In this document: positions 1-42,139 of the stretch, in pieces | How positions within the stretch are numbered: position 1 is the first letter of the stretch | Layout: every line of letters begins with the position of its first letter | Sequence record: MG983840.1 | Length of the DNA stretch: 64,000 nt | Source: Escherichia phage myPSH1131 | Reading direction: 5' to 3' (one strand) | The notes under the pieces: model-generated | Database searches by the model: none | The model's input: the letters and a program-made list of their open reading frames with translations, nothing else | What the model was told of the DNA's origin: nothing | Made by a program: the position numbers and the translations under genes

Positions 1-1131
1 ATTCCTCGTGATGCTATCGTCATTGACACGATAGAACGAGATGGTAACAAACTTCAAATCGTACAAATCAAACATCAAAATGAAAGAGGAGAGTTTGACG
101 GTTTAAGTACATTAGAATTCCGCTCAACCCAACAGGGTGAACACACATTGATGGGTGCAACAGTTGACTACATTTGGTTAGACGAAGAAGATCCATACGA
201 GTCTATGGCTATATTCGCACAGTGCGTCACACGTACACTCACAACTAAAGGTCTAGTTACAATTACAGCTACACCAGAGAACGGTTTAACTGAACTGGTA
301 GATAAATTTATGAAAGGTGAAGGGGATGAGAACACAGGTTCTCTATATTTCCAGAATGCTTCTTGGTGGGATGCTCATGCAGACCTAGGTGGACATATCA
401 CTGACCAAGATATAAAAGATATGACTGAAGGTATTCCAGCGTGGCAGTTAGAGATGCGTTCGAAAGGTATGCCATTGTTAGGAAGTGGTTTGATATATGA
501 TGTATCGGATGACACAATTAAATGTGAACCATTCGAAATTCCGGATACGTGGAAACGTGTCTGTGCAATTGATATTGGTATTGATCACCCAACTGCTGCT
601 GTTTGGACAGCTTACGATGCAAACACTGATACTATCTATGTTTACGACTCGTATAAAGAAGGTGGCTTTACTCCAGTGTATCATGCTCCAGCTATTAATG
701 GTCGTGGTCAGTGGATTCCTGTCATCCTACCGCATGATGCGGACAATATTGAGAAAGGTAGTGGTTCATCTGTTGCTCAATTCTATAAAAATGCAGGAGT
801 TAACGTACAGAGTGAGACCTTCTACAACAAAATTGGAATGGATGGTAAAAAGAACTTCTTTGTAGAACCGGGAATCACAGATATCCGAGAAAGAATGATG
901 AGTGGACGCTTTAAAATCTTTAACACAGCCGCTAACGCTAAGCTATTCGAAGAGAAAGCTAGATATCACCGTAAGGTTGGTAAGATTATTAAAGAACATG
1001 ATGACTTAATGGATGCAATGCGCTATTCAGCGTGCTCTGTTACACATCGTGGTCGCTCTAAGCATGACGTTAGCTACGGAAGTGCTTCTCTGTATGAGGC
1101 AAACGTAAGCAGATGGAATCAGAGTTACTAA
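1..1131 (+). CDS. terminase large subunit, 5'-partial (continues upstream of window)
   Basis: Frame 1 is open from base 1 with no stop. Walker-B-like VDYIWLDEED and nuclease-like VCAIDIGIDHP motifs; sits directly upstream of the portal gene. Confidence 0.8.
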   Translation: MPRDAIVIDTIERDGNKLQIVQIKHQNERGEFDGLSTLEFRSTQQGEHTLMGATVDYIWLDEEDPYESMAIFAQCVTRTLTTKGLVTITATPENGLTELVDKFMKGEGDENTGSLYFQNASWWDAHADLGGHITDQDIKDMTEGIPAWQLEMRSKGMPLLGSGLIYDVSDDTIKCEPFEIPDTWKRVCAIDIGIDHPTAAVWTAYDANTDTIYVYDSYKEGGFTPVYHAPAINGRGQWIPVILPHDADNIEKGSGSSVAQFYKNAGVNVQSETFYNKIGMDGKKNFFVEPGITDIRERMMSGRFKIFNTAANAKLFEEKARYHRKVGKIIKEHDDLMDAMRYSACSVTHRGRSKHDVSYGSASLYEANVSRWNQSY

Positions 1132-1192
1132 AGTAAGGGGGAGGTTTGTCCTCCCTTCTTTTATTTAAGCTATCAACCGAGGGAGAGAATCG

Positions 1193-2995
1193 ATGGCTAA
1201 GCAAAAATATAGTGAAGAGGTGTTGGACGAGTTACGTGTTGACCTTCAACGTCGTTTTAATTACGCTCAAGGTTACGTGGACATGGCTGTTAAGGGCTAT
1301 GCTCGTGAAGCTTGGGAATATTTCTATGGTAACTTACCTGCACCAGTAACTGCTGGCAGCTCTAGTTGGGTAGATCGTACTGTTTGGGAATCTGTTAACG
1401 GTACATTGCAAGATATTATTAACGTATTCTGTTCTGGTGATGAAGCAGTTACTTTCGTAGCTGACAACCAACAGGATTCTGATGCTGCTGATGTAGCAAC
1501 TAAACTAGTTAACCAAATTCTTCTGCGTGATAATCCGGGATACAATATTATCTCTTCTGCTGCACAAGAATGTCTAGTTACTCGTAACTCTTTTATCAAG
1601 TATTATTGGGATGAACAAACTTCTACTCAAACTGAAGAAGCTGAAGGTGTACCACCGGAAGCATTGGCTGCATATGTTCAGGGATTAGAAGCTGGTGGAC
1701 TCAAGAATCTGGAAATCTTCACTGAAGAAAATGAAGATGGTACAGTGGATGTTAAAGTTACTTACGAACAAACTGTTAAACGTGTGAAAGTTGAATATGT
1801 CCCTTCAGAGCAAATCTTTGTTGACGAACATGCTACCTCTTTTGCAGATGCACAATACTTCTGTCATCGTGTTCGTCGTTCTAAAGAAGATCTGGTTGCT
1901 ATGGGCTTCCCTAAAGACGAGATTGAAGCATTCAACGACTGGACAGACACGATGGATACTACTCAATCTACAGTTGCTTGGTCTCGTACTGACTGGCGTC
2001 AGGATATTGATGCTGATATTGGTACAGATACCGAAGATATTGCTTCTATGGTTTGGGTTTACGAGCACTACATTCGTACTGGTGTTCTAGATAAGAATAA
2101 AGAGTCTAAACTCTATCAGGTTATTCAAGCTGGTGAGCATATCCTTCACACTGAAGAAGTAACTCACATTCCGTTTGTAACCTTCTGTCCGTATCCGATT
2201 CCAGGCTCCTTCTATGGTCAATCGGTCTATGACATTACGAAAGATATTCAAGATTTACGTACCGCGTTAGTTCGTGGTTATATTGATAACGTCAACAATG
2301 CTAACTATGGTCGATACAAAGCTCTTGTTGGTGCATACGACCGTCGCTCTCTGCTTGATAACCGTCCCGGTGGAGTGGTTGAAATGGAACGTCAGGACGC
2401 TATTGACCTGTTCCCATACCATAACCTACCTCAAGGTATTGACGGCCTCCTAGGCATGTCTGAGGAGCTTAAAGAGACACGTACAGGTGTAACCAAACTA
2501 GGCATGGGTATCAACCCTGATGTGTTTAAGAATGATAACGCTTATGCAACTGTAGGCTTGATGATGAATGCTGCACAGAACCGTCTCCGTATGGTGTGTC
2601 GTAACATTGCTCACAACGGTATGGTTGAATTGATGCGTGGTATTTACAACCTTATCAGAGAAAATGGTGAAGTCCCTATCGAGGTACAAACCCCTCGCGG
2701 TATGATTCAGGTAAATCCGAAACAATTACCAGCTCGTCACAATCTCCAAGTTGTTGTAGCTATCTCTCCTAATGAGAAAGCAGAACGTGCACAGAAACTG
2801 ATTAGCTTGAAACAGCTGATTGCAGCAGATGCACAGTTAGCACCTCTCTTTGGTTTGGAGCAAGACCGTTACATGACTGCACAGATCTTTGAGTTGATGG
2901 GTATTAAAGATACACATAAATACCTTCTGCCTCTGGAACAGTATCAGCCTCCAGAACCTAGGTTGAGAACGTACAGGCTTCTTCTCAGAAGATGA
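1193..2995 (+). CDS. portal protein
   Basis: 600 aa ORF directly after the terminase; SD GAGGGAGAG precedes the ATG; ATGA overlap with the next gene. Call is by position and size only. Confidence 0.6.
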   Translation: MAKQKYSEEVLDELRVDLQRRFNYAQGYVDMAVKGYAREAWEYFYGNLPAPVTAGSSSWVDRTVWESVNGTLQDIINVFCSGDEAVTFVADNQQDSDAADVATKLVNQILLRDNPGYNIISSAAQECLVTRNSFIKYYWDEQTSTQTEEAEGVPPEALAAYVQGLEAGGLKNLEIFTEENEDGTVDVKVTYEQTVKRVKVEYVPSEQIFVDEHATSFADAQYFCHRVRRSKEDLVAMGFPKDEIEAFNDWTDTMDTTQSTVAWSRTDWRQDIDADIGTDTEDIASMVWVYEHYIRTGVLDKNKESKLYQVIQAGEHILHTEEVTHIPFVTFCPYPIPGSFYGQSVYDITKDIQDLRTALVRGYIDNVNNANYGRYKALVGAYDRRSLLDNRPGGVVEMERQDAIDLFPYHNLPQGIDGLLGMSEELKETRTGVTKLGMGINPDVFKNDNAYATVGLMMNAAQNRLRMVCRNIAHNGMVELMRGIYNLIRENGEVPIEVQTPRGMIQVNPKQLPARHNLQVVVAISPNEKAERAQKLISLKQLIAADAQLAPLFGLEQDRYMTAQIFELMGIKDTHKYLLPLEQYQPPEPRLRTYRLLLRR

Positions 2996-3396
2996 TTGCT
3001 GATGCATTCGACCAACGTGAACGTACTACATTCGAACAGCAGAAAGCTGCGGATGAATTAAGTCTGCGTCAGGAAGAGTTGCAGTTCAAGCAAGAAAATG
3101 CAGCAGATGCAATGACTCTGGAAAACCGTAAAGAAGATAACAATGCTACTCTGGAACAAGCTAAGCACAAGTTAGCTCTTATGCAACAGCAGGTCCGTCA
3201 GTATGAATCTGTACTGAAAGAATTGCAGATGGTTATGTCTCATCAGGTAGACCAAGAGAAGATTGTTCAGCAAGCTCGTGTTCAGGATAAAACTTTGGAA
3301 CTCCAAAAGAAAGAAGCTAATGTAACTAAGAAAGAGCAACAAGCTTCTCTCAAAGATTCACGGATTCCAGGCAAACGTCTTGGAAGTAAAAAGTAA
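2992..3396 (+). CDS. scaffolding-like coiled-coil protein
   Basis: 134 aa, Q/E/K-rich heptad-like sequence; lies between portal and capsid. Confidence 0.45.
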   Translation: MIADAFDQRERTTFEQQKAADELSLRQEELQFKQENAADAMTLENRKEDNNATLEQAKHKLALMQQQVRQYESVLKELQMVMSHQVDQEKIVQQARVQDKTLELQKKEANVTKKEQQASLKDSRIPGKRLGSKK

Positions 3397-3420
3397 GGAC
3401 GTCGAATGAATGAACATTAG

Positions 3421-4020
3421 GCATCAATTCACACCCATGCAGCTCGTAAGACTGGTGCATTCCAGTTCCTGTGTGCTCACGGTGGTCTGGCTGGTGGCGT
3501 TGTTGACAAGACCAAGAATGGTCCTGCTGACCCGGACACTGGTGCAGTAACTGTTAAAGTTGCACAGAATGCTTCTAACCCGACCACTAACATTGGTTTC
3601 GACGAAGCTGATATCTTTGATATGACTCTGCAACTGTATACCGCTGGTTCTGAAGCAGATATCATCATGATTAACCCGGCTCATGCTAAGATCTTTGCTG
3701 GTCTGCAAGAAAATACTCAGGGTTCACGTAAGCGTATCTTTGAGAACACCAAGCAGTTCATCTACGAAGTTAACAGCATCACTGACCCGCTGGGCCAGAG
3801 CTACAAAATCATCGTTAACCGTTGGATGCCTACCGATGCAGTTTACTTCTTCCGTAGCGCTGACTGGACCCAGATGGTTCTACGTGCTCCGAAACGTACT
3901 GAACTGGCTAAAGACGGTTCTTACGAGAAGTGGATGATTGAAATGGAAGTTGGTCTGCGTCACCGCAACCCGTATGCTTCCGGCGTTCTGTTCACTGCTG
4001 CGGGAAAGGTGGCGGCGTAA
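3421..4020 (+). pseudogene. major capsid protein, C-terminal ~200 aa only (T7 gp10-like C-terminus)
   Basis: Frame 1 is open from 3421 with no start codon. The C-terminus (RNPYASGVLFTAAGKVAA) resembles T7-type capsid ends. Two in-frame stops at 3394-3420 separate it from the scaffold ORF. Confidence 0.5.
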
Positions 4021-4031
4021 CAGTAGACAGT

Positions 4032-4544
4032 GTGACTGTTAGCCCTGCGTCTTTAGCAAGCCTAGAGACAGGGGCTACTCGGCAGTTCACTGCAAGCGCG
4101 GAGAAAAGTGATGGTTCTACCGAAACAACTGGCTTTACTTGGTCAGTGACAGGAGGTGGTTCTATCACTCAGTCGGGTTTGTATACTGCCCCGAGTGCGT
4201 CTCAATCCACTGATGTATCCATTACTGCAACTTTAGAAGGTGTTTCTGGTACAGCAACCATTTCTGAAATTGTTGCTCCTACTCCTACTATTGTGAGTCG
4301 TGGGCCAATTACAGGTAAAGTAGGTGGTACTACCACTAACTTCAACACCATGTTTACTGTAACTAATTCTATTGCTGATGATTACACACTTGTTGTAACT
4401 CCCGCAGAAGCTGGTACAATAAGCGCTAATAATTCGTTAAAATTAGATGCTGCTGCAAGTGGCGAAGTTACTGTTCAAGCAAGTTTGACAGCTGACCCGT
4501 CCATCAATGCAACATGCACTTTTACTGGTGTAACACCTGCTTAA
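4032..4544 (+). CDS. Ig-like (Big_2-type) domain ORF in the -1 frame of the capsid gene; probable frameshift extension
   Basis: T/S/G-rich Ig-like sequence (TWSVTGGGSITQSGLYTAP). The -1 frame is open from 3942 across the capsid stop, and a GGGAAAG heptamer sits at 4002-4008. Confidence 0.5.
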   Translation: MTVSPASLASLETGATRQFTASAEKSDGSTETTGFTWSVTGGGSITQSGLYTAPSASQSTDVSITATLEGVSGTATISEIVAPTPTIVSRGPITGKVGGTTTNFNTMFTVTNSIADDYTLVVTPAEAGTISANNSLKLDAAASGEVTVQASLTADPSINATCTFTGVTPA

Positions 4545-4550
4545 AAACTA

Positions 4551-4577
4551 GACCCTGCCTTCGGGCGGGGTTTTTTC
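4551..4577 (+). terminator. rho-independent terminator
   Basis: Stem CCCTGCC / GGCGGGG with a TTCG loop, followed by TTTTTT. Confidence 0.7.
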
Positions 4578-4604
4578 GTTTTAAGACCTATACAAGCTAG
4601 TGTG

Positions 4605-4613
4605 TAATGTATA
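4605..4613 (+). promoter_or_regulatory. TAATGTATA promoter motif (phiEco32-type)
   Basis: Exact TAATGTATA, 33 nt upstream of the ATG at 4647. Confidence 0.5.
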
Positions 4614-4646
4614 TTCTTTGTCTACATACAACAAGGAGGACAACCT

Positions 4647-5399
4647 ATGGCGATGCCAGATGTGGCCTATCCGATTAACACGTATGGCTGGCTTAAGAAA
4701 GCTGTTGCCTTGTGGGCCGATCGGGACGATGACGAATTTGTTAATCAAATTCCAAACTTTATTAACTTTGCAGAGAAAGAGGTTTATCGTAACTTACGTA
4801 TTCCTCCTCTGGAAAAAGAAGTGTATTTAGATATTAAAGATGGAGTGGCTTATATTCCTCCTGATTACTTAGAAGCTCAATGGATGATGAGAGCCAAAGA
4901 TGGTACAATCTTCCAAGTAACATCTCCTGAGGAGATAAGCTATCGGAGACAGCACGGGGCTATTAACTCTTCACATTGGAATAACCAACCTGTTAATTTT
5001 GCACGGTTTGGAGCACGTTTCTTATTCTATCCTAGAATAAATGCAGATGTTCCGCATTACCCTGATGATGGTAGTCCGATTGTTCCAGCGGAGAGTTCGG
5101 TAATCTTGAGTTATTATGCAGATCCTCCAGAATTTCACGAAGATGGTGATACAAGTGCGATTCTTACCATTGCACCAGAGCTTCTTTTATATTTTACTCT
5201 GAGGCATGCATGTTTATTTGTTCAAGATGATAATGGGGTTCAAAAGTGGTCTGCTTTAGGTAAGGCTATTCTTGACGAGCTAGTAGAACAGAATAAGAAA
5301 CAAGAGTACTCAGGTTCACCTATTGCAATTCCGAATAACATGACTCGACTTCAGAGCAGCCTGCCTGATATTTATGGTATTCGTACTTCTCGTCTATAA
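4647..5399 (+). CDS. structural protein, possibly adaptor or tail tubular protein
   Basis: 250 aa ORF with SD AAGGAGGA, first gene after the capsid terminator and promoter. Function is a positional guess. Confidence 0.35.
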   Translation: MAMPDVAYPINTYGWLKKAVALWADRDDDEFVNQIPNFINFAEKEVYRNLRIPPLEKEVYLDIKDGVAYIPPDYLEAQWMMRAKDGTIFQVTSPEEISYRRQHGAINSSHWNNQPVNFARFGARFLFYPRINADVPHYPDDGSPIVPAESSVILSYYADPPEFHEDGDTSAILTIAPELLLYFTLRHACLFVQDDNGVQKWSALGKAILDELVEQNKKQEYSGSPIAIPNNMTRLQSSLPDIYGIRTSRL

Positions 5400-5408
5400 G
5401 GAGATAAT

Positions 5409-8400
5409 ATGATCGTTTATAACAACCAAGCACCTAAGAATGTTAACAATGTAGGACAATTTGGAGCTACTGAGGGAACTATTGGTGCTTATAAATCAGC
5501 AGCTGAATATGCAGCAGACTCTAAATATTGGGCATTGTTGTCCCAAACTAAATACTCCTCAGTAGAGGAGATTTTGGCTGAAGTAGAACGTCTGTATGCT
5601 CAAGGTCATCTACTGGAAGAAGACATTAAACAACTCAAGAGTGACTTTGAGTCACAAGAACAAGTGCTCTTAGGTTTGATTCAATCCACAGGAACTGCAA
5701 TTGACAACACCAATGCAGCAACTGAGCTTTCAAAAGAGGCAACTCAAAACGTTCTAGCACAACTTGACATTATCTCTAACATGACAGTTCAAACAACGCT
5801 TCTTCCTCCGGGAAGCCTAGCTACGGGGTCTTATGATAATGCAACAGGTGTCTTTGCTTTTGGTATTCCAGAAGGTAAACCGGGGCGTGATGGTACTGAC
5901 GGAACAATCGGTGATATTGGAAGCGTTCCTGTTGGTACCCCTGTTGTTGATGACTATGGTTTCTATGTAGATAAAGATGATGGTGGTTTATACCGAGCTG
6001 ACATGTCAGATATTGCCAACTTGATTCCATCTGTTCGATCTGTTTCAATCAATGGCGGCGCTGAACAAACAGGTTCAGTGGTTTTTGATTCTGTCTCCAC
6101 ATTCAATGGACGTAAGGGTGCTGTAGTTCCTGCTACTGGAGACTACACAGCTGCTCAAGTGGGAGCTTTTAGTGTAACTAATAACCTATCCGAAATAACC
6201 GACACAAGTGCAGCTATTACAAATATTGGACTCGCTGAGCATGGGATTGGTAGCCCTACCTTAACCAAAGTGAAGGCTATGGACTGGCAAACATTTAATT
6301 TTGTCAATGGAGGTAACTATTCAGTATTAATGTCGAATATTACAAATGCCCCTGCTGAGATAAATTATCCTGCCAATTATGGGTTATATCTTGAAGTCAT
6401 TGGCGTAGTTACAGGAGGAGGTGAGGTACGAGTGGTGCCAGGGACAAACAATAATAACTACTACTCAGTTTTCTCTGTAAGCTGGACTGGAGGAGTTGGT
6501 TCCCGAGTATTTACAGTACGAGAAGAGCTGTCTTCCGCTCGCCCTGTGACTATCTCTCAGGGTGGCACAGGGGCAACTACTGCAAGTGCTGCACGTACTA
6601 AACTTGGTTTAGGTTTGGTTTCCACTGAATCAATTGTACCTATTACCAAAGGTGGTACAGGAGCTACTTCATCAGAGAATGCTCGACTAGCTCTAGTTGC
6701 AGCTAAGAGTGGTGATAACTCTGATATCACCTCGATGACCAACAAGGTTACTTTCACACAATCTCCAGTAATTCCTGATGCTGTAGATGATAATGACGCG
6801 GTTGCTTTGAGACAGTTGCATACAAGTGAAGCAGATTTGCTGGCAAGGCTGAAAAGTAGTAATGCAGGTGAAGGTGCATCCCTTATTACCTTTGAAAATG
6901 GTAATTCTGTTGAGAGTCTTTCCAGTAAAGATGGGGCTAAAAACATTGGCAGTGGTGAGAGAAGTTTGCTTGTCCGTAACAACGACATTAAGCATTCAGG
7001 AGATTTCCCTACCTTACAAGCTGCGGTAAATGCATCGTTACCAAAAAACGACTTAATTGTTTCCCCCGGTGAATACAGTGAAGCGATTACTATTGGTAGT
7101 ACACAGTTAAAGGGTGTTGGTGGAGCCACGGTACTGAAAGCTCCGTCAAACTTTACAGACACTATTCAGGTTAAGGCATCTACGCCTCATTGGCAATTCC
7201 GCCATAGTGGTGGTTTTGCTATAGATGGTTCTGGGACAACCGGGGCTGTAGGTATTAGTTTTGACCCGACCGACCAATATGCTGGTCGTCACAACTTTAG
7301 TGACGTATACATCCATAACATTAACAAGGCCATTCAGAAACCTTCCGGGAATATAGGTAATACATGGAAAGGCATTGGCGTGCAAGGTTGTGACTGGGGT
7401 TACTGGGCACAGTCTGCTTCTGAGATGCACTTAGGCTCTGACACCCTTCAGAACATGCACTTTGATGGTATTAGCACTTACTGTGTTTACTTGAACGCTA
7501 CAACAGGAGAAGCGCCTGGTACATTCGGAGGTGGTGTAGGCGGCTGGTGGATTAAAGATAGTATTATGGAAGCCTCTGGCGGTGGTGGTATTTACCTCAA
7601 GAACAAGGATGGTGACTGCCCTACTGCCCCATGTGGTGTATCCAATGTATGGATGGAAGCTATCGCTACTACTCCAGCTATTAATGTAGATGGTGTATCT
7701 CAGAAGCCTCGTGTCCTTAAACTTATTGATACCAGTATCTTCTTTGCAGAGTACACATACCTTAATAACGTAGAGCTTCAGAACTCCAACCTTGTTACTT
7801 ATGGCTGCCGAGTAGATAATTCAGATGGCCACATGGATATCTCTGTAGATGCCAACAGCAGTTTTGTGGCTGATCAATTGTACCTGAATGGTAGCTCCGG
7901 CAAAGATGTAATGGTACGTTCTGTAGCGGCTCAGACAGGCAAGATTGGGCAAAGCTGGTCACCTAATATGAGTATGCGTGGATACCTGCCGGAAGGATAC
8001 ATCTATCGTGTACCTGGTAATAAGCTGGTAGCTAAACCCTTCGATGGAGGTACTGCTGAATTTAGTGGTACGGCAAGCAGCACTGGGAGTTTGCAGCCAC
8101 AAGGCCAGTTATCTCAGAGCTGCATGTACTTCGAAATCCCTGGTGCTGCTGAGTATGAGCTTACTGGTGCTGCATTTCAGATAACTTCCGGTAACTGGTA
8201 TGTATGGGGCATTAGCACTGAACTGGTACAGGGAACCCCTACAAACTTCCGCATCGGTGGAGATATCAATGTAGGTGAAGTATTTACTAAGGGGGGCCAG
8301 TGGGTGAGTACCTTTGGTGTAGCTCAGGCTAGTGCTTCCGGTTCAGTGAACCTGCGCCTAAGTACAGCCGGTACAGGCGGAGTAGTCCTACGCCTCGCTG

Positions 8401-8474
8401 ATTACTTCGTAGCGGAGTTCACTACTCAGGCAGAGGCTATGCGCTTCGCTAATAGTAGACGTGCCCTGCGTTAA
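5409..8474 (+). CDS. tail fiber / tailspike with beta-helix-like region
   Basis: 1021 aa. Collagen-like GKPGRDGTDGTIGDIG near the N-terminus; Gly/Asn-rich repeats typical of right-handed beta-helix tailspikes. Confidence 0.5.
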   Translation: MIVYNNQAPKNVNNVGQFGATEGTIGAYKSAAEYAADSKYWALLSQTKYSSVEEILAEVERLYAQGHLLEEDIKQLKSDFESQEQVLLGLIQSTGTAIDNTNAATELSKEATQNVLAQLDIISNMTVQTTLLPPGSLATGSYDNATGVFAFGIPEGKPGRDGTDGTIGDIGSVPVGTPVVDDYGFYVDKDDGGLYRADMSDIANLIPSVRSVSINGGAEQTGSVVFDSVSTFNGRKGAVVPATGDYTAAQVGAFSVTNNLSEITDTSAAITNIGLAEHGIGSPTLTKVKAMDWQTFNFVNGGNYSVLMSNITNAPAEINYPANYGLYLEVIGVVTGGGEVRVVPGTNNNNYYSVFSVSWTGGVGSRVFTVREELSSARPVTISQGGTGATTASAARTKLGLGLVSTESIVPITKGGTGATSSENARLALVAAKSGDNSDITSMTNKVTFTQSPVIPDAVDDNDAVALRQLHTSEADLLARLKSSNAGEGASLITFENGNSVESLSSKDGAKNIGSGERSLLVRNNDIKHSGDFPTLQAAVNASLPKNDLIVSPGEYSEAITIGSTQLKGVGGATVLKAPSNFTDTIQVKASTPHWQFRHSGGFAIDGSGTTGAVGISFDPTDQYAGRHNFSDVYIHNINKAIQKPSGNIGNTWKGIGVQGCDWGYWAQSASEMHLGSDTLQNMHFDGISTYCVYLNATTGEAPGTFGGGVGGWWIKDSIMEASGGGGIYLKNKDGDCPTAPCGVSNVWMEAIATTPAINVDGVSQKPRVLKLIDTSIFFAEYTYLNNVELQNSNLVTYGCRVDNSDGHMDISVDANSSFVADQLYLNGSSGKDVMVRSVAAQTGKIGQSWSPNMSMRGYLPEGYIYRVPGNKLVAKPFDGGTAEFSGTASSTGSLQPQGQLSQSCMYFEIPGAAEYELTGAAFQITSGNWYVWGISTELVQGTPTNFRIGGDINVGEVFTKGGQWVSTFGVAQASASGSVNLRLSTAGTGGVVLRLADYFVAEFTTQAEAMRFANSRRALR

Positions 8475-8498
8475 GAGTAATGACATTACTATAAGCAA

Positions 8499-8522
8499 AA
8501 CCCCGCTTAGGCGGGGTTAGCT
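8499..8522 (+). terminator. terminator-like hairpin
   Basis: Stem CCCCGC / GCGGGG with TTAG loop; the downstream T-tract is weak. Confidence 0.35.
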
Positions 8523-8700
8523 TCCATAGGGTAGTTGTTTTCCCTGATGTAGTGGAATTTATCGGAGACAATGAGCTGGCTGCTTTGTTGCATTCTGATA
8601 AATAGTTCATAACTCCCCTTCGAGGTCTTTAGTAGTAAGTACCTTTAGTAAGTAATGAAACTAATATATCCCAAGAGGTTAATACATAGGAGACAGATAA

Positions 8701-8919
8701 ATGAAAATGATGAAACAAGCTGCATATGGTTTAATATGCTTAGGCGCAGGTGTTGTGGTATCCACCGCAGTTCCTGTAGGCGCAGTTCATCCATTAGTTA
8801 CAGCACCTTCTCCAGTAGAGAAGCTTAGCTCTCAATGTAAACAGAGAACAATTCAAAATAACCTAGTTGTTATTTGTCCTGATGCTGAATCTAACGCTCT
8901 GAGAAAGATACTACCTTAA
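8701..8919 (+). CDS. small protein with N-terminal signal/TM segment (possible lysis accessory or holin-like)
   Basis: 72 aa; hydrophobic N-terminus LICLGAGVVVSTAVPVGAV; immediately upstream of the endolysin. Confidence 0.3.
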   Translation: MKMMKQAAYGLICLGAGVVVSTAVPVGAVHPLVTAPSPVEKLSSQCKQRTIQNNLVVICPDAESNALRKILP

Positions 8920-8948
8920 TTTAAAGGGACCACAAAAGGAGGTTAGAA

Positions 8949-9440
8949 ATGGATAACGCCGCATTGCCACCTGTACAATTAAACTTAAGCCCAGCTGGAA
9001 TGGAATTCATTATGAAGCATGAAGGTATGAGAACCAAGGCTTATAAAGATTCCGCAGGCATCTGGACGATATGTGTAGGGGCTACGCGCGATATGAATGG
9101 TTATCCGGTTAGACAAGGATTAACGTATTCTATAGAGGATTGTCTAGCTCTGCTAGATAGAGACACACAAGACTCTGTTCGTGCTACTCAGAAGAACATA
9201 AAAGTTCCTTTACTAGTTCATGAGTTTGATGCACTCACTTCTTTCAATTTTAATGTTGGAAGTGGTGCTTTGAGCACATCTAAGTTAAGGAAGGTTATCA
9301 ATGGAGATGTTAAAGGGGATATTTATTCCGAATTTCTTCGTTGGGATAAGATAACGGTCAAGGGAGTGAAGCAGAGAAGTCAGGGTCTTCATAACAGAAG
9401 GGTTGCAGAAGCTGATCTTTATACCGAAGGTAAATATTAA
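8949..9440 (+). CDS. endolysin, lysozyme (GH24-like)
   Basis: HEGMRTKAYKDSAGIWTICVGAT matches the lambda R / T4 e lysozyme catalytic region; SD AAGGAGG. Confidence 0.8.
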   Translation: MDNAALPPVQLNLSPAGMEFIMKHEGMRTKAYKDSAGIWTICVGATRDMNGYPVRQGLTYSIEDCLALLDRDTQDSVRATQKNIKVPLLVHEFDALTSFNFNVGSGALSTSKLRKVINGDVKGDIYSEFLRWDKITVKGVKQRSQGLHNRRVAEADLYTEGKY

Positions 9441-9452
9441 TGGAGGTGCCTC

Positions 9453-10256
9453 TTGGCTATTGAAACTAATGCGGTAGTAGTTACCGACTTAAACCCACTC
9501 TATCCTCGTGATAGAGATTATATCTATGAAGGTGCAGCCCAGCTGCGCCTAGTTAAGCAAGTATTACAGAACACATTCCCCAACTTAACTGAGCCTATGA
9601 CTGTAAACTCTGACACACTAGCTGCTATCTCTGACAAGATCTCTTTTGCTGGTGACTATATGGATGTTGGTGGTTTGATGATTAAGAATGGTACAGCAGG
9701 TACTGGTAATAACGACTTTACCACCAAAGCCCAAATGGAATCTTTTATGCTCAACTGGATGCAGAATAAGATTTACAGGGTTGGGTCTTATTACATCACT
9801 GAGGAAGATATTAACCCGGGAGATTCTACATCTTTAGGGTTTGGTATCTGGACACAAGTTACTGGTGTTATCATGGGTGCTGGGGTTGTGAACCCTGATG
9901 GGACAGTCCCTAATGCTCAGCGTGTGGAGTTTACTGCTGGTGCTACAGGTGGTCGTGTTTACAACACAGTTAAGACAGAGAACCTGCCATTGACTACAAT
10001 CTCTGGTTCAAGTTTTTCTCTTTCTAACTATACACACTCACACACTACATCATTTGGACGTGGAGATGCAAGTGGACATAACAGCTCACCTAACTGGTAT
10101 AATCCGGGGGTTAGTTATTCTGTTGCATCAAGTTCTGATACTCACACCCACACCATTACAGGTGATGCAACATTTGGCTATGATGATGTATCTCGTCAAC
10201 CTATAAATACGTTACCACCCTTCCGTGCAGCATATATCTGGAGACGTATCAGTTAA
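9453..10256 (+). CDS. tail fiber-like protein
   Basis: 267 aa, Gly/Thr/Ser-rich, within the tail gene block. Confidence 0.35.
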   Translation: MAIETNAVVVTDLNPLYPRDRDYIYEGAAQLRLVKQVLQNTFPNLTEPMTVNSDTLAAISDKISFAGDYMDVGGLMIKNGTAGTGNNDFTTKAQMESFMLNWMQNKIYRVGSYYITEEDINPGDSTSLGFGIWTQVTGVIMGAGVVNPDGTVPNAQRVEFTAGATGGRVYNTVKTENLPLTTISGSSFSLSNYTHSHTTSFGRGDASGHNSSPNWYNPGVSYSVASSSDTHTHTITGDATFGYDDVSRQPINTLPPFRAAYIWRRIS

Positions 10257-10265
10257 GGAGGAAGT

Positions 10266-13223
10266 ATGGCTCTTTACCCAATAAAATCTTTGGGTGCGGT
10301 TGGTGTTATTGCCGACCAATCTCCTACAGATCTGGCTCCTAATGCATTTACTAATGCAATTAATGCTCGGTTTGTAGAACAGCGTGTGTTTAAGACGGGG
10401 GGCTCTGCCCCTCTTTCTTACGTTGAAAGTGATAAAGAAATAAGACCATTATCATTCACTTCAATGCCTTTTGACTACTTCAGTGCTAACAATAGTTTCT
10501 TACTGGTAGGTACAGATAAGAGTATTTTTAGATTAAATAATGAATCTATGGTTGATGTTAGTCGAAGAGTGGCTACAGTCACCAAAAAAGCAGTATCTTA
10601 TGTCAAGATAAACCCCGTACTAACAGAGATCGTCCCTAAAGAAACATCTGTTATTATGAATCTTAATGAAAGCAAGGTTCTCGAGGTATCTCTTCTTCCA
10701 GAAGGTGTTGTTACTCCATCCCTTGTGTGGGAGGTTAGTAATCCCTCCTATGGTTCAATATTAGTTGACCCTGATGATAGTAAGAAAGCTACATTGAGTG
10801 TCTTATCTAATGAGGGTAGCTTTACTGTCACTGTCTCTAATGAAGATGAATCTGTAACTACCAGTATCTCCGTAAAGGTTGTTGATTCTGATTCTGGTAT
10901 CTTCCTTAACCGGGACTCTGTTCAACTTCGTAAAGGTGGAACAACCACACTTACAGCAACAACCAGCAAGACCCCACTAACGTGGACTTCTTCTAACCCG
11001 TCCATTATATCTGTGGCGCCTAATGGTGACACTACTACAGCAATATTAACCGCTCAAGGAGTAGGTAATGCACTGATAACAGTAAGCAATGGGTCTAAAA
11101 CCTCGGAATGCTCTGTTAGTGTTATCAATCAGATTGACAGTATATCTTTAAGTCAAACAGATTTACAAATTAACCGTGGGACGTCATATGTCTTATACTC
11201 TAGTTTAATTCCATCAAATGCTGCAAATCAGAGAATAACTTGGACTTCCTCTAACCCAAATATCGCCACTGTTTCGGGAACAGGTCTTCAAGGAACTGTC
11301 TCTGGGTTAACTGCTGGGTTTACAGTTATAACAGCAACTACGGAAGAAGGTGAAAGGACCGCCACCTGTAACGTCAGGGTTGAGTTATCAAGTAGGGCCC
11401 TTTTTTCTGCTGCATCAGCTCCTTCTGAAGAACCTAGTTCTACGGATTCAGATATTGACACCTCATCTATGTCAGAGGGCAATGCTTTTTATGACTATTC
11501 TATGGTTGATGGTGTTGAAGCCTATTCTATAAATGAAGTCATGTCTAGGTCAACTCAGCTTGAATCCTTAACTCTTGACATTGTGGATACTGAAATTGAT
11601 GTTGGAGATGAGTTAGTAATAACTGCAACGGCATTCCCTGAAGGGGAGTACCTTTATAATTGGGTGGTAGATCAGCCGGGGTATATATCCTCTACTTCCA
11701 CTACCGACTCTTCCTTTACCTTAACTGCTATTAAGACTGGCAAAGTGAAGATAACCTGCACTGCTAGTCAAGTAGCTCGTAGAGACTATGAAGCATTTGA
11801 GGAGTATCCTTGGTATAATACGATTATCTCTAACTGCGCAGTATTCACTACTCACTACGAAACCCCTCAAGTAAAAGAGTTTGCCTCTGAGTATTTCACA
11901 GATCTTCCGGGGTGGGGTGAGCAGACAATAGTAGATGCTAATGGGAACCCTTCTGTTGTAAAATATAACTGGAAGTGCGAAAGGATTCGTGCATTTAATA
12001 ATCGTCTATTTGCTCTTAATATGCGAGAGTCTAATGCATCAGGAGTTACTACTCACTACCCTCTTCGACTTCGCTGGTCTAACTATGCTAATGAGAATAA
12101 GGCACCTACTTTATGGGATGATTTTGCTTATGATAGATATGTGACTTCAGATTTAGCAGCAAATGTTGTAGGTCAAACTGAGGCTCTAGAAAATGGATAT
12201 GCCGGATACATAGATTTAGCTGACTCAAACGGTAGCTTAGTCGAAATTCTTCCTCTTAAGGATTATCTATTTATCTATACGGAGTTTGAGACTTACATTG
12301 GATCCCCAACTAACAACACATATCAACCTCTAATGTTCAAGAAGCTCTTCAACGACTCTGGAATCTTAGCACCTGAGTGTGTAGTTGAAGTTGAGAGCGG
12401 ACATTTCGTGGTCACTCAGAATGATGTTATTCTACACAATGGTGCAACCAAGAAGTCTATTGCATCTAACAGGGTCAAGAATATGCTTATCAACGAAGTG
12501 TGTTTAGTAAACCCTTTGGCTACTAAAGTTCATCTTCACCAAGACAAGAAGGAAGTGTGGATTCTTTATGTAGGACCCGGAGAACCTGCTGGGAGCTTTG
12601 CTTGTACGAAAGCCGCTGTATGGAACTATGAGTTTGATACGTGGTCTTTCCGTACAATCCCATTCTCTCATTGTATTGGTTTAGTCGATCCTCCTACTTT
12701 AGAGAAAGGTCCTACTTGGGTTGATTTCCAAGAGTACACTTGGGATGACCCTTCAATCAGTGAACTTGTGTGGAGAAAGGATTCTACTAACTTCCGTCAG
12801 AGAGTTACTGTAGTAGGTTCTTGGATGAAAGGTTTTTACCAAGTGGACATAGGTCCTTATGACTACTCTTATGATAGGCTGAATGATATTGTTGTCAAAA
12901 AGCCCCTAGAGATGAGACTGGAAAGAACTGGTATAGATTTTGACAACGTAACTAATGAATGGAATCAAAAGCACATAAACCGATTCCGTCCACAAGTAAC
13001 CGGGTCAGGTACGTACATATTCCAAGCTGGTGGTAGTCAGTATTCGGATCAAGAGGATAGGCATATTCATAGTGAAAAGTCTTATACAATTGGTGTGGAC
13101 AGACATGTAGGTGTCCGACTGAACCATCCGTATCTATTCTATAATGTTATAGATAATGATGTTAACAGTAATGCAGCAATCAATGGTCTAACTATTGAGT
13201 TTGCTGTTGGCGGGCGAAGATAA
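10266..13223 (+). CDS. large tail protein with repeated Ig-like (Big_2) domains
   Basis: 985 aa with several Big_2-type segments, e.g. TWTSSNPSIISVAPNGDTTTAILTAQGVGNALITV and ITWTSSNPNIATVSGTG. Confidence 0.5.
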   Translation: MALYPIKSLGAVGVIADQSPTDLAPNAFTNAINARFVEQRVFKTGGSAPLSYVESDKEIRPLSFTSMPFDYFSANNSFLLVGTDKSIFRLNNESMVDVSRRVATVTKKAVSYVKINPVLTEIVPKETSVIMNLNESKVLEVSLLPEGVVTPSLVWEVSNPSYGSILVDPDDSKKATLSVLSNEGSFTVTVSNEDESVTTSISVKVVDSDSGIFLNRDSVQLRKGGTTTLTATTSKTPLTWTSSNPSIISVAPNGDTTTAILTAQGVGNALITVSNGSKTSECSVSVINQIDSISLSQTDLQINRGTSYVLYSSLIPSNAANQRITWTSSNPNIATVSGTGLQGTVSGLTAGFTVITATTEEGERTATCNVRVELSSRALFSAASAPSEEPSSTDSDIDTSSMSEGNAFYDYSMVDGVEAYSINEVMSRSTQLESLTLDIVDTEIDVGDELVITATAFPEGEYLYNWVVDQPGYISSTSTTDSSFTLTAIKTGKVKITCTASQVARRDYEAFEEYPWYNTIISNCAVFTTHYETPQVKEFASEYFTDLPGWGEQTIVDANGNPSVVKYNWKCERIRAFNNRLFALNMRESNASGVTTHYPLRLRWSNYANENKAPTLWDDFAYDRYVTSDLAANVVGQTEALENGYAGYIDLADSNGSLVEILPLKDYLFIYTEFETYIGSPTNNTYQPLMFKKLFNDSGILAPECVVEVESGHFVVTQNDVILHNGATKKSIASNRVKNMLINEVCLVNPLATKVHLHQDKKEVWILYVGPGEPAGSFACTKAAVWNYEFDTWSFRTIPFSHCIGLVDPPTLEKGPTWVDFQEYTWDDPSISELVWRKDSTNFRQRVTVVGSWMKGFYQVDIGPYDYSYDRLNDIVVKKPLEMRLERTGIDFDNVTNEWNQKHINRFRPQVTGSGTYIFQAGGSQYSDQEDRHIHSEKSYTIGVDRHVGVRLNHPYLFYNVIDNDVNSNAAINGLTIEFAVGGRR

Positions 13224-13227
13224 TACT

Positions 13228-13256
13228 AAGGGAGCTTCGTGCTCCCTTTTCTTGTT
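13228..13256 (+). terminator. rho-independent terminator
   Basis: Stem GGGAGC / GCTCCC with TTCGT loop, then TTTT. Confidence 0.6.
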
Positions 13257-13273
13257 TATTATAAGGAGGGTCT

Positions 13274-14242
13274 ATGGGTGCTGGTGGCTTTCGTAAGAAT
13301 ACCGGAAGAAACAACACAACACAACCTTATAGTGTGGGCTTTCTAAACACCTCTGAGAGTGTAGAAACCAATAACGTTGCAATATATGATGAACTCCAGA
13401 ACATTAGCACTGCAACCAATCAAATGTTCCAAGCTATAGATGAAATCCACGAGGAGATTGATGTTCGTATTAAAGCTCTTCATGCTATGAATTTGCAATT
13501 CGATGAATTAGAGAACCGTGTTACAACAGAGATTGAGACTGCCATTGCAGATATCATAACACAAATGGGTAATCTATCCACTGATGATATTTGGGATAAC
13601 TCTGTTCAGCCTCCTGTTAAGTTAGATTCAACTATGTCTGGTATTAAGACTTCTATAGAAGGCAATACAGCATCTATTCAAACTGTCGAAGGCATTGTCA
13701 ATGATCAAGGACAAGAGATTGCCCTTATTCAGTCTGATTTAACTAACGGGACAGGTAGTGCTTCTCAATATATGAAACTCACTGAATATGAAGCTACTTG
13801 GGGAGTAAATTCCACAGTAAATGGAAAGACAGCAGGAGTAAAACTGACAAATAATGGTTCTGTAAGCCAATTCCAAGTCACAGCTGATAAGTTTGTGGTA
13901 TCTGATGGCACATCAGGAAGTACTCCCTTCAAGGTTGAGAATGGAAGGGCTGTTATGGAGTTTGCTGATATTACTAATGTCAATATTACAACAGCTCAAA
14001 TAGCAACAGCTAGGATTGAATGGGCACAGATTGATAATGTTAGTATAACAAATGCACAAATCACAAGTCTCTCCGCTGATAAGATAACGGCTGGGTCTAT
14101 GTCAGGGACTAATTGGCGTCTTACAGTTGGCGGTGACTTTGTTTTAGGTGGAACAGGTGGTGCACAATTATGGATGAATGGAAACAGAATAGATTTCTAC
14201 GACGGAAGTGGTGCTCTAAGAATTAGAATAGGGAGTTGGTAA
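13274..14242 (+). CDS. tail fiber / structural protein
   Basis: 322 aa ORF with SD AAGGAGGG; repeat-rich C-terminal half. Confidence 0.35.
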   Translation: MGAGGFRKNTGRNNTTQPYSVGFLNTSESVETNNVAIYDELQNISTATNQMFQAIDEIHEEIDVRIKALHAMNLQFDELENRVTTEIETAIADIITQMGNLSTDDIWDNSVQPPVKLDSTMSGIKTSIEGNTASIQTVEGIVNDQGQEIALIQSDLTNGTGSASQYMKLTEYEATWGVNSTVNGKTAGVKLTNNGSVSQFQVTADKFVVSDGTSGSTPFKVENGRAVMEFADITNVNITTAQIATARIEWAQIDNVSITNAQITSLSADKITAGSMSGTNWRLTVGGDFVLGGTGGAQLWMNGNRIDFYDGSGALRIRIGSW

Positions 14243-14243
14243 T

Positions 14244-15275
14244 ATGGCATATGGAATATGGACACAACCAGTAGGGCCGGGGCCAGCAACCCCCGCTCCC
14301 TTGTTTATTGATAGCGGAAGTACTTTCCCTCAGTTCAAGAATAGTATAAGAGGGAGCTTTAACTTTAATGGAGCTGGGAGATCTTTCCCTATTAGTGGAT
14401 GGGATGGCAGTGGTCAGATAGTTATTGTTCCTACCGGTTCTTTATGCTGGCAATGGGAAGTCCCTCCTAACCTAGTTCCTGATGTTTATTGTGTGAATAA
14501 TATCTATGTAGAAAACAACTCCTCTTTTAGAGTTACTCTGAATCAGAACCCCGGTAGTAATCCACTATTCGATTGTGGGTTCAACGTATATCAAATATGG
14601 CCTAGAGCGGATAGGAATTATGGAATTACCTTTTCTAATACAGCAGACTACTTCTCAATATCTGACAGTGGGGTCGTCGGTCAATGTATTTGGGCTTGGC
14701 AGGGGACCATAAACAATGCCCTTCAGATACCAAATATCGGTGGGTTCAATATGACCAATGCTGTTGTGTTTGCTAATTGGTCTGATGGAGGGGTAGGACT
14801 ATCTTATACCTCTGATGACAGGGTTATTCGCGTCTATCAGAACAGACCCTATGTCAACGGAAACACTAATGAAGGAGGGTCTGTCTTTGCGAGGGTTGCC
14901 GTATTCTGTAACGGAGCTGGTGTTCCTGAGCATAATGGAGGTTTGAATATTTACTCTCCGGGTACCACACAATGTGTCTTCTCTACTAACAGAACACCTT
15001 TCACTGTGGATACTTTTATAGGATCAGGAGGTGGTAACACGGGAATGTCATACCCCATGATACCTCTTACCTCTGGGATAGGTGCAATAAAAGGCCGAGG
15101 CAGTGGATGGAGATATCAGCAAATGAGATCTCACACAATGAGTGGTTCTACGATAGGAACTGGCTATGGAAGGTATTTGTTTCAGTGGGATCAAAATTAC
15201 GACCTAGGAGCTGATACTGTAGTTAATTTATCAGTCCCTGTAATAAATGCAGCTAAGGTTTTTGCTGGACTATAA
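14244..15275 (+). CDS. structural protein
   Basis: 343 aa ORF, Gly/Asn-rich, tightly packed in the structural block. Confidence 0.3.
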   Translation: MAYGIWTQPVGPGPATPAPLFIDSGSTFPQFKNSIRGSFNFNGAGRSFPISGWDGSGQIVIVPTGSLCWQWEVPPNLVPDVYCVNNIYVENNSSFRVTLNQNPGSNPLFDCGFNVYQIWPRADRNYGITFSNTADYFSISDSGVVGQCIWAWQGTINNALQIPNIGGFNMTNAVVFANWSDGGVGLSYTSDDRVIRVYQNRPYVNGNTNEGGSVFARVAVFCNGAGVPEHNGGLNIYSPGTTQCVFSTNRTPFTVDTFIGSGGGNTGMSYPMIPLTSGIGAIKGRGSGWRYQQMRSHTMSGSTIGTGYGRYLFQWDQNYDLGADTVVNLSVPVINAAKVFAGL

Positions 15276-15287
15276 CAAGGAGATATT

Positions 15288-16070
15288 ATGGCAATTAAAA
15301 TGGGTATTGAAGAACTAGACCCAATGGTTCAACAGGCTTCAAAGAAGTATGGGATTCCTGCTGCTTTGATTCATGCTGTAATCCAAAGAGAGTCTAGTGG
15401 TCGTCCTACAGTAGCTTCTGGAACTGGTCCTGTAGGTTTAATGCAAATCAGTAAAGGGTTGGCTAAAGACTACGGATATAAATTGGAAGATAGATTGGAC
15501 CCAGCAAAGAATATTGATATGGGTGCTCGGTATATCAGAGACAACCTAAAAGCTTTTAACGGTGACGTCAAGAAAGCAATGGTTGGTTATTCAGAAGGTA
15601 TCGGCGGAGCTAAGCAAATGTTCGCTGGTAAAAGAGGGTTTACTCCACAGGCTCTTGATTCAATGAACAATAAACACTTTCTTCCTTTCTATGGTGATGC
15701 AGCTTCTCAGATTGCTAACCCTATTGGAGCTTTGCAAGCTGTTCAACCAGTTAACCAGTTTAGTCCGGATACTCTTGATAGAGAGAAGGCTGCTCAAGCT
15801 CCGACTCAGGCAGAAATTGCTGCTTCTAAGACTGGTGCTTTAGGCGGCAATCCAGTAGAGTTTTACTCTGATGAAGCACAGGAAGGAGAAGATCAGAAGC
15901 CTCAACAGAACTTTGGTAATGCAGTATTAGGAGTAGCTGCTATGCTTGCTGGTAAACCTCCTACTTCTCAAACAGTTCAGAGGGCAAGTGCACCACATGC
16001 AGCAGGTTCTCAGTACAGTCCACAAACACAAGCAGTGCTCAGACGTTTGGCTAGCATTGGTGTGAAGTAA
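15288..16070 (+). CDS. virion-associated lytic transglycosylase (SLT domain)
   Basis: SLT signature ESSGRPTVASGTGPVGLMQI. Confidence 0.6.
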   Translation: MAIKMGIEELDPMVQQASKKYGIPAALIHAVIQRESSGRPTVASGTGPVGLMQISKGLAKDYGYKLEDRLDPAKNIDMGARYIRDNLKAFNGDVKKAMVGYSEGIGGAKQMFAGKRGFTPQALDSMNNKHFLPFYGDAASQIANPIGALQAVQPVNQFSPDTLDREKAAQAPTQAEIAASKTGALGGNPVEFYSDEAQEGEDQKPQQNFGNAVLGVAAMLAGKPPTSQTVQRASAPHAAGSQYSPQTQAVLRRLASIGVK

Positions 16071-16089
16071 TAATCGTTAAGGAGGACTT

Positions 16090-17142: not shown

Positions 17143-17154
17143 AGGAGAATATCT

Positions 17155-18123: not shown

Positions 18124-18136
18124 TTAGGAGATAAAT

Positions 18137-19786: not shown

Positions 19787-19806
19787 GACCTAAGTCCTGC
19801 CTTCTA

Positions 19807-19815
19807 TAATGTATA
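19807..19815 (+). promoter_or_regulatory. TAATGTATA promoter motif
   Basis: Exact motif, 39 nt upstream of the ATG at 19854. Confidence 0.5.
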
Positions 19816-19853
19816 TAGGGGGTAGGACATTTTTATTTATAAAAGGAGACGTT

Positions 19854-22800: not shown

Positions 22801-23201
22801 CCTTCAACAAAGCTAACAAGAACTCTCAGTACGAAGCTGCTGCTAAGCATTTACAGGCTCGTGAAGAACGTCTTGCTACACTCAGGAAAAAGGCTCAGGC
22901 TCGTTCGGATGCTAAAGCTGCTGTTGAGAATGAACGTAAAACTCTAGAGGCTATTGCAGCTCAGAAGAGTGAGATTGAGAAGATGATGGAAGGTTTACCT
23001 AAACCTGTTCGTGAGGCTCAGGAATCTCGTACACTGAAACAGTTGGCTGCTCACCACGATAAGAACTCTCCAGTTCCTCCAGAGAAGTTCCGTAGTTACA
23101 TTGAACGTATCCATAACGCCGAGTCAGACTACCTTGATCGTCAGCGTCGTTTAACTGATGCAGAGGAAGATGCTCGTCAGGCTAAGTGGAACAAGATGTA
23201 G
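19854..23201 (+). CDS. large internal virion / ejection protein (about 1115 aa)
   Basis: Start moved to the ATG preceded by SD AAAGGAGA; the track start at 19809 overlaps the promoter. Ala/Glu-rich with coiled-coil regions. Confidence 0.45.
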   Translation: MANIKPWEEASKAPAYLNASPEQQAQMREQYKAAGGSIPEEQPVAQPQQEERGAIGEFAQGVSNALQSGGANIAASAAKGIGGLVEIGENLAGAQTSYGKRIQENSQNLLKERMDKIEDGIGKTVGQYAGVAGDIGLTVANPLAAAAIIAGRETGRAYADQTPEEGEDKSILDAALVGGANYAAQRILPGAVGTAESTLGRIGQNVASNAVAGAKGGALVGAAEAQNKHGDDTTFANVLEGAIEEGAMGAAFGGAVGGVHGLISRPDSAVFKNTPEYAKTDIAADDELIRSAKNIDELKEAYSKAETANAASALNLLDENGFRITDAVAVDSPAAQRILNTDQARAEKAASVQKEHSNIPGLNPLASPAKTRGKAFADNEHNQKQAVAMKDAMADYTKDNTKALTDVLDNLDRELTSLRASGDFTGSPIDIKNRTQADRDFIDAYKTFYNEANRFKAREGEDFNNFVEKATELQKMADNVSPEMKKAIGGLKKLKGMPEGFNPIQDAYTLNNTAKFMSNQDRGWTSLTDDGFREASSPSLVMNTLGAAKYALNRFSSQRARSQRVKQQESNSEAIRSLARGDLEVARAKSTADEARAKMEEEPVVDDIKFKTQNDVETEPVREPSSSTVTEENLPSSTPQETPLTARDLVAQRRAIRQAEQRRAEEEALAAQEAPVEQAPQAEPLPARNPLEERRAMEQQRAQEEAAQAPEPTVEEPTVKAEPLPARAPKAPKEAVQDVKPASGVERLAAMSSAARQATKDRAERFARSLYSKAAKAKATAENFLAYKGDPKELMRRIRQEDNAINTERHEEMARNQLASQQGIATAKNNTVRTNFAEWVKERGLPEDIATKALRAEEKGLGGNVTNLDSLKRRAERLYQKQREDEFDRLYQQALEENKAFDNKNAPKLVDQKKELQSEIDTLIDAEPLRPAQKDAMRKLMNDFVDGKFKSSEKAGREEALEVGQMKDIWDGFINTYNREVNAFNKANKNSQYEAAAKHLQAREERLATLRKKAQARSDAKAAVENERKTLEAIAAQKSEIEKMMEGLPKPVREAQESRTLKQLAAHHDKNSPVPPEKFRSYIERIHNAESDYLDRQRRLTDAEEDARQAKWNKM

Positions 23202-23309
23202 TAGAGAAAGACTAGCTTAAAAGAGGAACCTCATGAGGAATAAGAACGAAGATTGTAAGTATAGTTCAAACCGAGGTCATAATATAATAGATTTCATAAG
23301 TATTAGAAT

Positions 23310-24263: not shown

Positions 24264-24275
24264 AGGAGATTTGAT

Positions 24276-24665
24276 ATGAGTATGGAGTCTAAAGGATATA
24301 AAGACCCTGCCAAATACGAAGCTTATCTTGAAAGACAGAGAGATTATAAGAGACGTAAAAGGGTCGAGGGTGACCCTTGGTATGATCCTGAAAAAGTGAG
24401 AGCTAAGAATCTCCAAAAGATGTATGGGATATCTCATGAAGAATATGAGAAAATGTGGGAAGAACAAGAAGGGCTTTGCAAGATCTGTGGTAATCCAGAG
24501 AGTGTTAAACTTAAAGGTGTGGTTAAGCTACTAGCTGTAGATCATTGTCATTTATCTGGCAAGGTTCGTGGTCTTCTTTGTAATAACTGCAACAGAGCGA
24601 TAGGTATGCTTAAGGATGACCCTGAGATACTTCGTCGTGCTGCTAGCTATTTAGAGGAGATATAA
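24276..24665 (+). CDS. HNH homing endonuclease (free-standing)
   Basis: HNH motif DHCHLSGKVRGLLCNNCN. It lies between the A and B paralogs, which are directly adjacent in the first copy. Confidence 0.75.
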   Translation: MSMESKGYKDPAKYEAYLERQRDYKRRKRVEGDPWYDPEKVRAKNLQKMYGISHEEYEKMWEEQEGLCKICGNPESVKLKGVVKLLAVDHCHLSGKVRGLLCNNCNRAIGMLKDDPEILRRAASYLEEI

Positions 24666-24666
24666 T

Positions 24667-25635: not shown

Positions 25636-25648
25636 TTAGGAGATAAAT

Positions 25649-36425: not shown

Positions 36426-36561
36426 GATAAGTTGGATAGCTCCCTGTCTGCTGTATTTAACTATTTACTTTAGCTTCAAGTGTTTCGAAATCCTTTAGAC
36501 AAGAAGAACCCGAACAGTTCAATACTCAAGTCAAATCTAAACCATCAGTGTGAACCCAAAT

Positions 36562-42087: not shown

Positions 42088-42139
42088 CGAATCACCAAAG
42101 GAGCAATTCCGCATTCTCTAAAAGTGGCAGGCATATAAT

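Follow-up and report, generated by a model that had tools for sequence, protein, structure and literature searches.

The truncated major capsid gene in the Escherichia phage myPSH1131 record is most probably an assembly artefact

Can a phage that forms plaques and virions have a genome in which no complete major capsid gene is encoded? This question is raised by the head gene region of Escherichia phage myPSH1131 (MG983840.1), of which we analysed bases 1-64000 as a single stretch of 64,000 nucleotides (hereafter, the window). The original prediction had described this region as a scaffold gene and a C-terminal capsid fragment that lie in the same reading frame, are separated by two stop codons, and lack about 140 amino acids of capsid N terminus between them. 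As a check it had proposed comparison with the closest complete genome, which was the right comparison and settles the question. Alignment to that genome, phage ES17 (NC_070984.1/MN508615; Kuravirus, head module gp007 to gp012), revealed that the lesion is real and is bigger than had been described, with a 40-nt gap at 2959/2960 (join 1), an extra GAAT at 3404-3407, and a 1,801-nt gap at 3431/3432 (join 2). The features of the region are collected in Table 1.

Table 1. Head genes, joins, and fillers of the window compared with ES17 (window coordinates unless another record is named)
Feature	Position	Strand	Basis or remark
TerL, 3' part	1..1131	+	ES17 TerL codons 138-513; window 1 = ES17 2831; ES17 TerL 2420-3961
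Portal codons 1-589, in frame	1193..2959	+	tblastn 100% to ES17 portal 1-589
Join 1	2959..2960	.	40 nt of ES17 (5790-5829) missing (pairwise and three-way alignment)
Portal codons 604-747 and natural stop	2962..3396	+	tblastn 100%, ES17 portal 604-748; stop TAA 3394-3396
Extra GAAT, tandem 4-nt duplication	3404..3407	+	Spacer between portal stop and gp009 start
gp009, first 7 codons (MNIRHQF)	3410..3430	+	ATG at 3410, frame 2; tblastn gp9 1-7
Join 2	3431..3432	.	1801 nt of ES17 (6298-8098) missing
Major capsid codons 158-352 and stop	3433..4020	+	tblastn 100% over 196 positions, ES17
Longest capsid-frame ORF, 132 aa	3622..4020	+	Capsid residues 221-352; published as 'Major head protein'
Slippery heptamer and Ig-like ORF	4002..4544	+	G_GGA_AAG 4002-4008; ORF 4032-4544, -1 frame
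Published ORFs with the same coordinates in the window	151-1131, 3622-4020, 8701-8919, 8949-9440		Terminase, Major head protein, Holin, Lysin, respectively
Fillers of ~100 nt (n = 8)	23201-23304, 36444-36543, 43970-44069, 53386-53485, 55168-55277, 56494-56589, 58706-58803, 62758-62859
104-nt filler	23201..23304	+	Short out-of-order pieces of ES17 6371-6477 (exact-match mapping)
Fillers in myPSH2311 (examples)	7368-7466, 10487-10595, 27923-28022, 40185-40286, 42079-42178, 44072-44171		Positions in the myPSH2311 record

Megablast of positions 1100-5500 matched ∼120 Kuravirus (phiEco32/SU10-like) phage records, the best of which was ES17 at 99.7%; these 4,401 nt of the window span 6,239 nt of ES17. 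The two sequences are otherwise very close. Positions 1-2959 and 3431-23200 align to ES17 at 99.92-99.93% nucleotide identity with zero indels, and the gene order is that of ES17 (TerL, portal, gp009 and scaffold where present, capsid, Ig-like ORF, structural protein, and tail fiber). In ES17, all four head genes are intact (portal, 747 aa; gp009, 78 aa; scaffold, 358 aa; capsid, 352 aa). Within the first 23.2 kb of the window, the three lesions all fall in 2960-3431, the only part with a raised density of substitutions (3 in 472 nt).

We then asked whether the upstream ORF is a scaffold gene, as originally proposed. The ORF at 2992-3396 (134 aa) corresponds to the last 134 portal codons and is 100% identical to residues 615-748 of the ES17 portal (tblastn). 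It matches the portal family phrog_1216 at profile positions 630-702 of 714 and has no match to the scaffold family (phrog_9013) in PHROGs. The ORF has no Pfam match, and its assignment was settled by PHROGs together with the identity to the ES17 portal. What had been called a scaffold ORF is therefore the C-terminal part of a frameshifted portal gene. The true scaffold gene is absent; ES17 scaffold used as a tblastn query returned no match in the window. The 40 nt missing at join 1 shift the portal frame, and the 5' portal ORF as written does not terminate until 2993-2995, so that it encodes 600 aa, 11 of which are junk residues. Its portal part matches Pfam PF23899 (SU10_portal; E = 6e-166). 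Instead of one uninterrupted portal ORF of ∼747 codons, the window thus holds two ORFs of 600 aa and 134 aa. The terminase gene is incomplete as well. Because the record opens at TerL codon 138, the N-terminal 137 codons are absent, and the remaining ORF runs from 148 to 1131, three nucleotides longer at its 5' end than the published annotation. By the usual domain layout, the ATPase domain would be expected to begin within the absent codons. Four Kuravirus-like genomes were left out of a published pangenome study on account of incomplete TerL ORFs.

Do the shared frame and the two stops point to a mechanism by which the upstream ORF and the capsid fragment are expressed together? Recoding or splicing (readthrough, frameshifting, an intron, or an intein) could in principle join the two across the stops. 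The 27-nt string TAAGGACGTCGAATGAATGAACATTAG is indeed found at 3394-3420, between the upstream ORF and the capsid fragment, and reading of the sequence confirmed both frame-1 stops, the TAA at its start and a TAG at 3418-3420. Frame 1 is also common to the 134-aa ORF and to the capsid-homologous stretch that ends at 4020. This shared frame is the only observation that speaks for recoding, and because it has a 1-in-3 chance of arising by coincidence, we gave it no weight. The two stops, presented originally as separating the scaffold and capsid ORFs, are not special. The TAA is the natural stop of the portal gene, and the TAG is an out-of-frame triplet that falls within codons 3-4 of the gp009 remnant. 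The intervening 27 nt are a normal portal-gp009 spacer and the start of gp009, after which the sequence resumes at capsid codon 158. Full-length ES17 gp009, a small conserved gene, matches phrog_12967, and in every complete relative the portal, gp009, scaffold, and capsid genes are separate. Because 157 capsid codons and the scaffold gene are not in the window, there is nothing from which the capsid could be restored. Recoding is refuted on this ground, and we regard its probability as negligible.

The piece stranded between the two gaps measures 472 nt (2960-3431) and differs from ES17 by three substitutions plus the GAAT. This tandem duplication is not found in ES17, in the related record myPSH2311, or in any matching phage record; the best database match to the stretch that contains it reaches 97.8%, a shortfall that the 4-nt gap by itself explains.

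What remains of the capsid gene? Missing at join 2 are codons 8-78 of gp009, all 358 codons of the scaffold gene, and capsid codons 1-157, with codon 157 lost only in part. The original prediction was thus right that the capsid N terminus is missing; its estimate of ∼140 aa was too low, since tblastn with the ES17 capsid revealed that 157 codons are absent. The fragment that is left belongs to the expected family (Pfam PF17236, SU10_MCP; E = 4e-34) and covers only positions 137-289 of the 292 in that profile. It is not a full-length gene of ∼352 codons with its own start, and no start codon or ribosome-binding site is found at its 5' end. The frame of the fragment offers no start codon before 3622, which limits any product to at most 132 aa. 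In the usual HK97 layout, loss of the capsid residues before 158 would remove the N-terminal arm and the extended loop. The capsid protein of SU10 has the HK97 fold, and of such a protein the window encodes only residues 158-352. The capsid and portal fragments belong to the same families as the SU10 major head protein (PDB 7z45, 352 aa) and portal (PDB 7z44, 747 aa).

Is the missing part encoded elsewhere? Searches of the whole window with blastn and tblastn for the missing 1,801 nt, the scaffold, gp009, and the capsid N terminus gave nothing beyond chance matches of ≤15 nt. In the last 12 kb of the record, which lie beyond the window, all ORFs of the published table are of early type and on the minus strand, and none of them is a second head gene. 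The claim that no functional capsid protein could be made from the sequence as written therefore holds, with the missing part nowhere else in the 64-kb window by tblastn.

At the 3' end of the fragment, the signal for a C-terminal capsid extension was preserved. The heptamer G_GGA_AAG is a canonical -1 slippery sequence located five codons ahead of the capsid stop, and the -1 frame is open from 4008 into the Ig-like ORF, which matches phrog_13745. The published annotation gives an Ig-like domain at 4350-4544. An extended capsid isoform made by way of a slippery heptamer and an Ig-like ORF has already been described for Kuravirus-like phages, and its presence in SU10 virions is disputed (PMC9965538). 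In the window, the extension signal and the Ig-like ORF are intact yet useless without the capsid N terminus.

Is the truncation then a property of the phage or of its record? According to the myPSH1131 paper, the phage forms plaques, its virions were imaged and are of Podoviridae-family morphology, it is lytic on 31 E. coli isolates, it is viable after lyophilisation, and it is effective in vivo. A phage that infects and forms virions must have intact portal, scaffold, and capsid genes. The same paper states that the genome (MG983840; 76,163 bp) was obtained from CLC de novo scaffolds that were then processed with CONTIGuator2 on a downloaded reference. The myPSH2311 paper likewise describes a 5.9-Mb CLC assembly ordered on a reference with CONTIGuator2. 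For sequence data, the papers cite GenBank accessions alone. Because the record is a CONTIGuator-ordered pseudomolecule of a phage that plaques and whose virions have been imaged, the truncation is best read as an assembly join, and the biological oddity implied by the original prediction is unsupported. We conclude, with a probability of roughly 0.93, that the capsid truncation is an assembly or editing artefact produced by contig joins in a reference-guided chimeric record and is not phage biology. The published annotation was made on this same sequence: of the 80 published myPSH1131 ORFs (Table A of that paper) that end before 64,000, 79 are exact start-to-stop ORFs in the window, and the published base composition agrees with it as well.

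The form of the record is consistent with this conclusion. CONTIGuator corrects the pseudomolecule made by ABACAS, a program that arranges contigs along a reference and represents gaps by N's. As in such pseudomolecules, blocks in the window follow the order of the reference, and blocks that overlap on the reference stand side by side with ∼100 nt between them. Unlike a raw ABACAS pseudomolecule, the window contains no N at all. Where contigs overlap, ABACAS would be expected to insert a spacer of exactly 100 N, a detail not stated in the CONTIGuator and ABACAS papers. Going against the artefact reading, neither of the joins at the head genes contains a filler, although fillers stand at most of the record's other joins.

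How far does the patchwork extend? Beyond 23,200, we found more than 20 breaks of colinearity with ES17, together with second and third copies of ES17 segments that are 88-95% identical to ES17. These divergent copies differ from ES17 at third codon positions, mostly by transitions, a bias by which the copies are recognizable as natural sequence. One block resembles phage MN03 (98.4%) more than it does ES17. The record is thus pieced together from blocks of two or more Kuravirus strains, with fillers of ∼100 nt. We also considered whether the window might be artificially mutated or computer generated and rejected this, because the divergent duplicates carry third-position, transition-biased differences and match other real phages better.

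Several parts of the patchwork can be described individually. The segment ES17 52138-53749 is present three times within 53854-58201. At 53486-58201, three copies of the block with the ATP-grasp gene (ES17 ∼52.1-53.7 kb) stand next to one another, 92-100% identical to ES17 and with ∼100-nt fillers between them. The triplication probably arose when the scaffolder stacked contigs from different strains. The large internal virion protein gene (ES17 gp025, annotated as 'TolA protein') is cut where colinearity ends at 23,200, and its last 1,075 nt are absent. After this truncated gene, a second, MN03-like (98.4%) copy of the ejection-protein genes (ES17 20852-23540) occupies 23305-26384. It has an extra 382 nt (24270-24651) that by eye resemble part of an HNH endonuclease, and ES17 27869-29010 is missing in this region. 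Positions 58202-58444 (243 nt) have no megablast match to ES17 and are rich in repeated GTCGTG/TTCGTG motifs; they may represent either another filler or an intergenic stretch particular to the strain, such as an origin or iteron array.

The eight fillers listed in Table 1 sit where a pseudomolecule would have its gap spacers. Compared with 50,697 phage records, none of them matched contiguously. Every filler is instead a mosaic of exact Kuravirus pieces of 8-34 nt that come from another genome position and are partly out of order. The 104-nt filler is built of gp009 sequence from inside the segment that is missing at join 2.

A record from the same laboratory and pipeline, myPSH2311 (MG976803.1), offers a second view of this locus. 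Over long blocks, it is 99.99-100% identical to the window, and the two share the triplicated ATP-grasp block and the patchwork with fillers. Its annotation likewise includes a 'major head protein' of 132 aa and a 'portal protein' of 134 aa. Unlike the window, myPSH2311 keeps gp009, the scaffold gene, and part of the capsid N terminus, and it has fillers of 12 nt and 99 nt at the places where the window sequence abuts directly. Conversely, the window sequence is correct at many places where myPSH2311 has fillers. Although labelled a complete genome, the myPSH2311 record carries fillers of 12 to 140 nt, many of them exactly 99-102 nt, that replace ES17-like sequence. These look low in complexity (e.g., GGCCCAAAATTGGCGCCCAAAATTGGGG) and are unrelated to any phage. 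The three-way alignment placed a break in myPSH2311 1 nt away from the right edge of join 1. In the myPSH2311 capsid gene, the 99-nt filler ends ∼10 nt from where join 2 has its right edge. The left edge of join 2 (ES17 6297) has no coinciding break in myPSH2311, a point against the artefact reading.

Could the truncated locus instead belong to a real but defective genome? A Kuravirus subpopulation that had lost gp009, the scaffold, and the capsid N terminus and whose portal was frameshifted might persist in a mixed lysate as a parasite of intact co-infecting relatives. Such helpers could exist, since the natural-type substitutions in the duplicated blocks make it clear that more than one Kuravirus strain is in the data set, and the clean, filler-free joins would suit a deletion. 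The remaining evidence argues against it. Three independent lesions would have had to arise within 472 nt of a 23-kb block that is otherwise free of indels, and their breaks would have had to fall 1 nt and ∼10 nt from breaks in another record, deposited separately and assembled with the same pipeline. Alignment to ES17 revealed a microhomology of 0 nt at join 1 and of at most 1 nt at join 2, which does not fit repeat-mediated recombination or slippage. Many other essential genes in the record are also cut, among them TerL at its N terminus and the large internal virion protein. The exact sequence of join 2 had 0 matches in four collections (phage records, among which MG983840 is not included, viral_contigs, metagenome_contigs, and genome_contigs), and that of join 1 had 0 matches in viral_contigs. 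By these scans, the arrangement has no independent occurrence. A defective subpopulation is accordingly a very improbable account of the locus.

An engineered deletion was considered as well. Join 1 creates the hexamer CCTAGG (AvrII), and GACGTC (AatII) occurs at 3399-3404. GACGTC is native to ES17, and this candidate was rejected; by our own rough estimate, a palindromic hexamer has an ∼8% chance of appearing across a random join.

If the truncation is an assembly artefact, how might it have come about? A data set holding more than one Kuravirus strain, mixed or fragmented, would break into many contigs. These contigs would then have been ordered on the reference with CONTIGuator, those overlapping on the reference being placed side by side. 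Placement of this kind matches the redundant blocks with spacer-sized fillers. At the two joins in the head genes, the gap placeholders would have been dropped, so that the flanking contigs abut directly. The real phage at this locus would be ES17-like, with an intact portal (747 aa), gp009, scaffold (358 aa), and capsid (352 aa).

One variant of the artefact reading is that the abutments were made by hand, by editing or trimming after assembly in which runs of N were removed or replaced, in which case the contigs may have extended further. Fillers other than N stand in both sister records where gaps are expected. Their make-up differs, with low-complexity, phage-unrelated sequence in myPSH2311 and out-of-order phage pieces from elsewhere in the window, and the window is without any of the N's as which ABACAS writes gaps. 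These observations are consistent with manual intervention. Plain abutment of contigs would look the same, and we put the odds of hand editing at even.

What are the consequences of an artefactual locus for the use of these records? MG983840 and MG976803 are the exemplar sequences of the ICTV species Kuravirus myPSH1131 and Kuravirus myPSH2311, and a new genus, 'Vellorevirus', has been proposed with myPSH1131 as its founder. The phages myPSH1131, myPSH2311, and ES17 stand as three ICTV species, and the colinear backbone of the window is 99.99-100% identical to myPSH2311 and 99.8-99.9% identical to ES17. Chimeric blocks, gaps, and fillers are the probable source of the apparent distance among the records, and the separation of the species may itself be an artefact of chimeric assemblies. 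Protein family resources may be affected too. The family phrog_29786 ('major head protein', 132 positions) matches the truncated ORF 3622-4020 end to end, and phrog_33551 ('Ig domain', 64 positions) does the same with the truncated ORF 4350-4544. Both truncated ORFs are annotated in myPSH1131 and myPSH2311, and both families may have been seeded by artefactual ORF calls. For taxonomy, pangenome studies, and model training, MG983840 and MG976803 should be treated as unreliable.

The genes at this locus are ordinary Kuravirus head genes, and nothing here is new biology. Since the real phage must have intact head genes, the truncation carries no biological weight, and its relevance is to the curation of the records.
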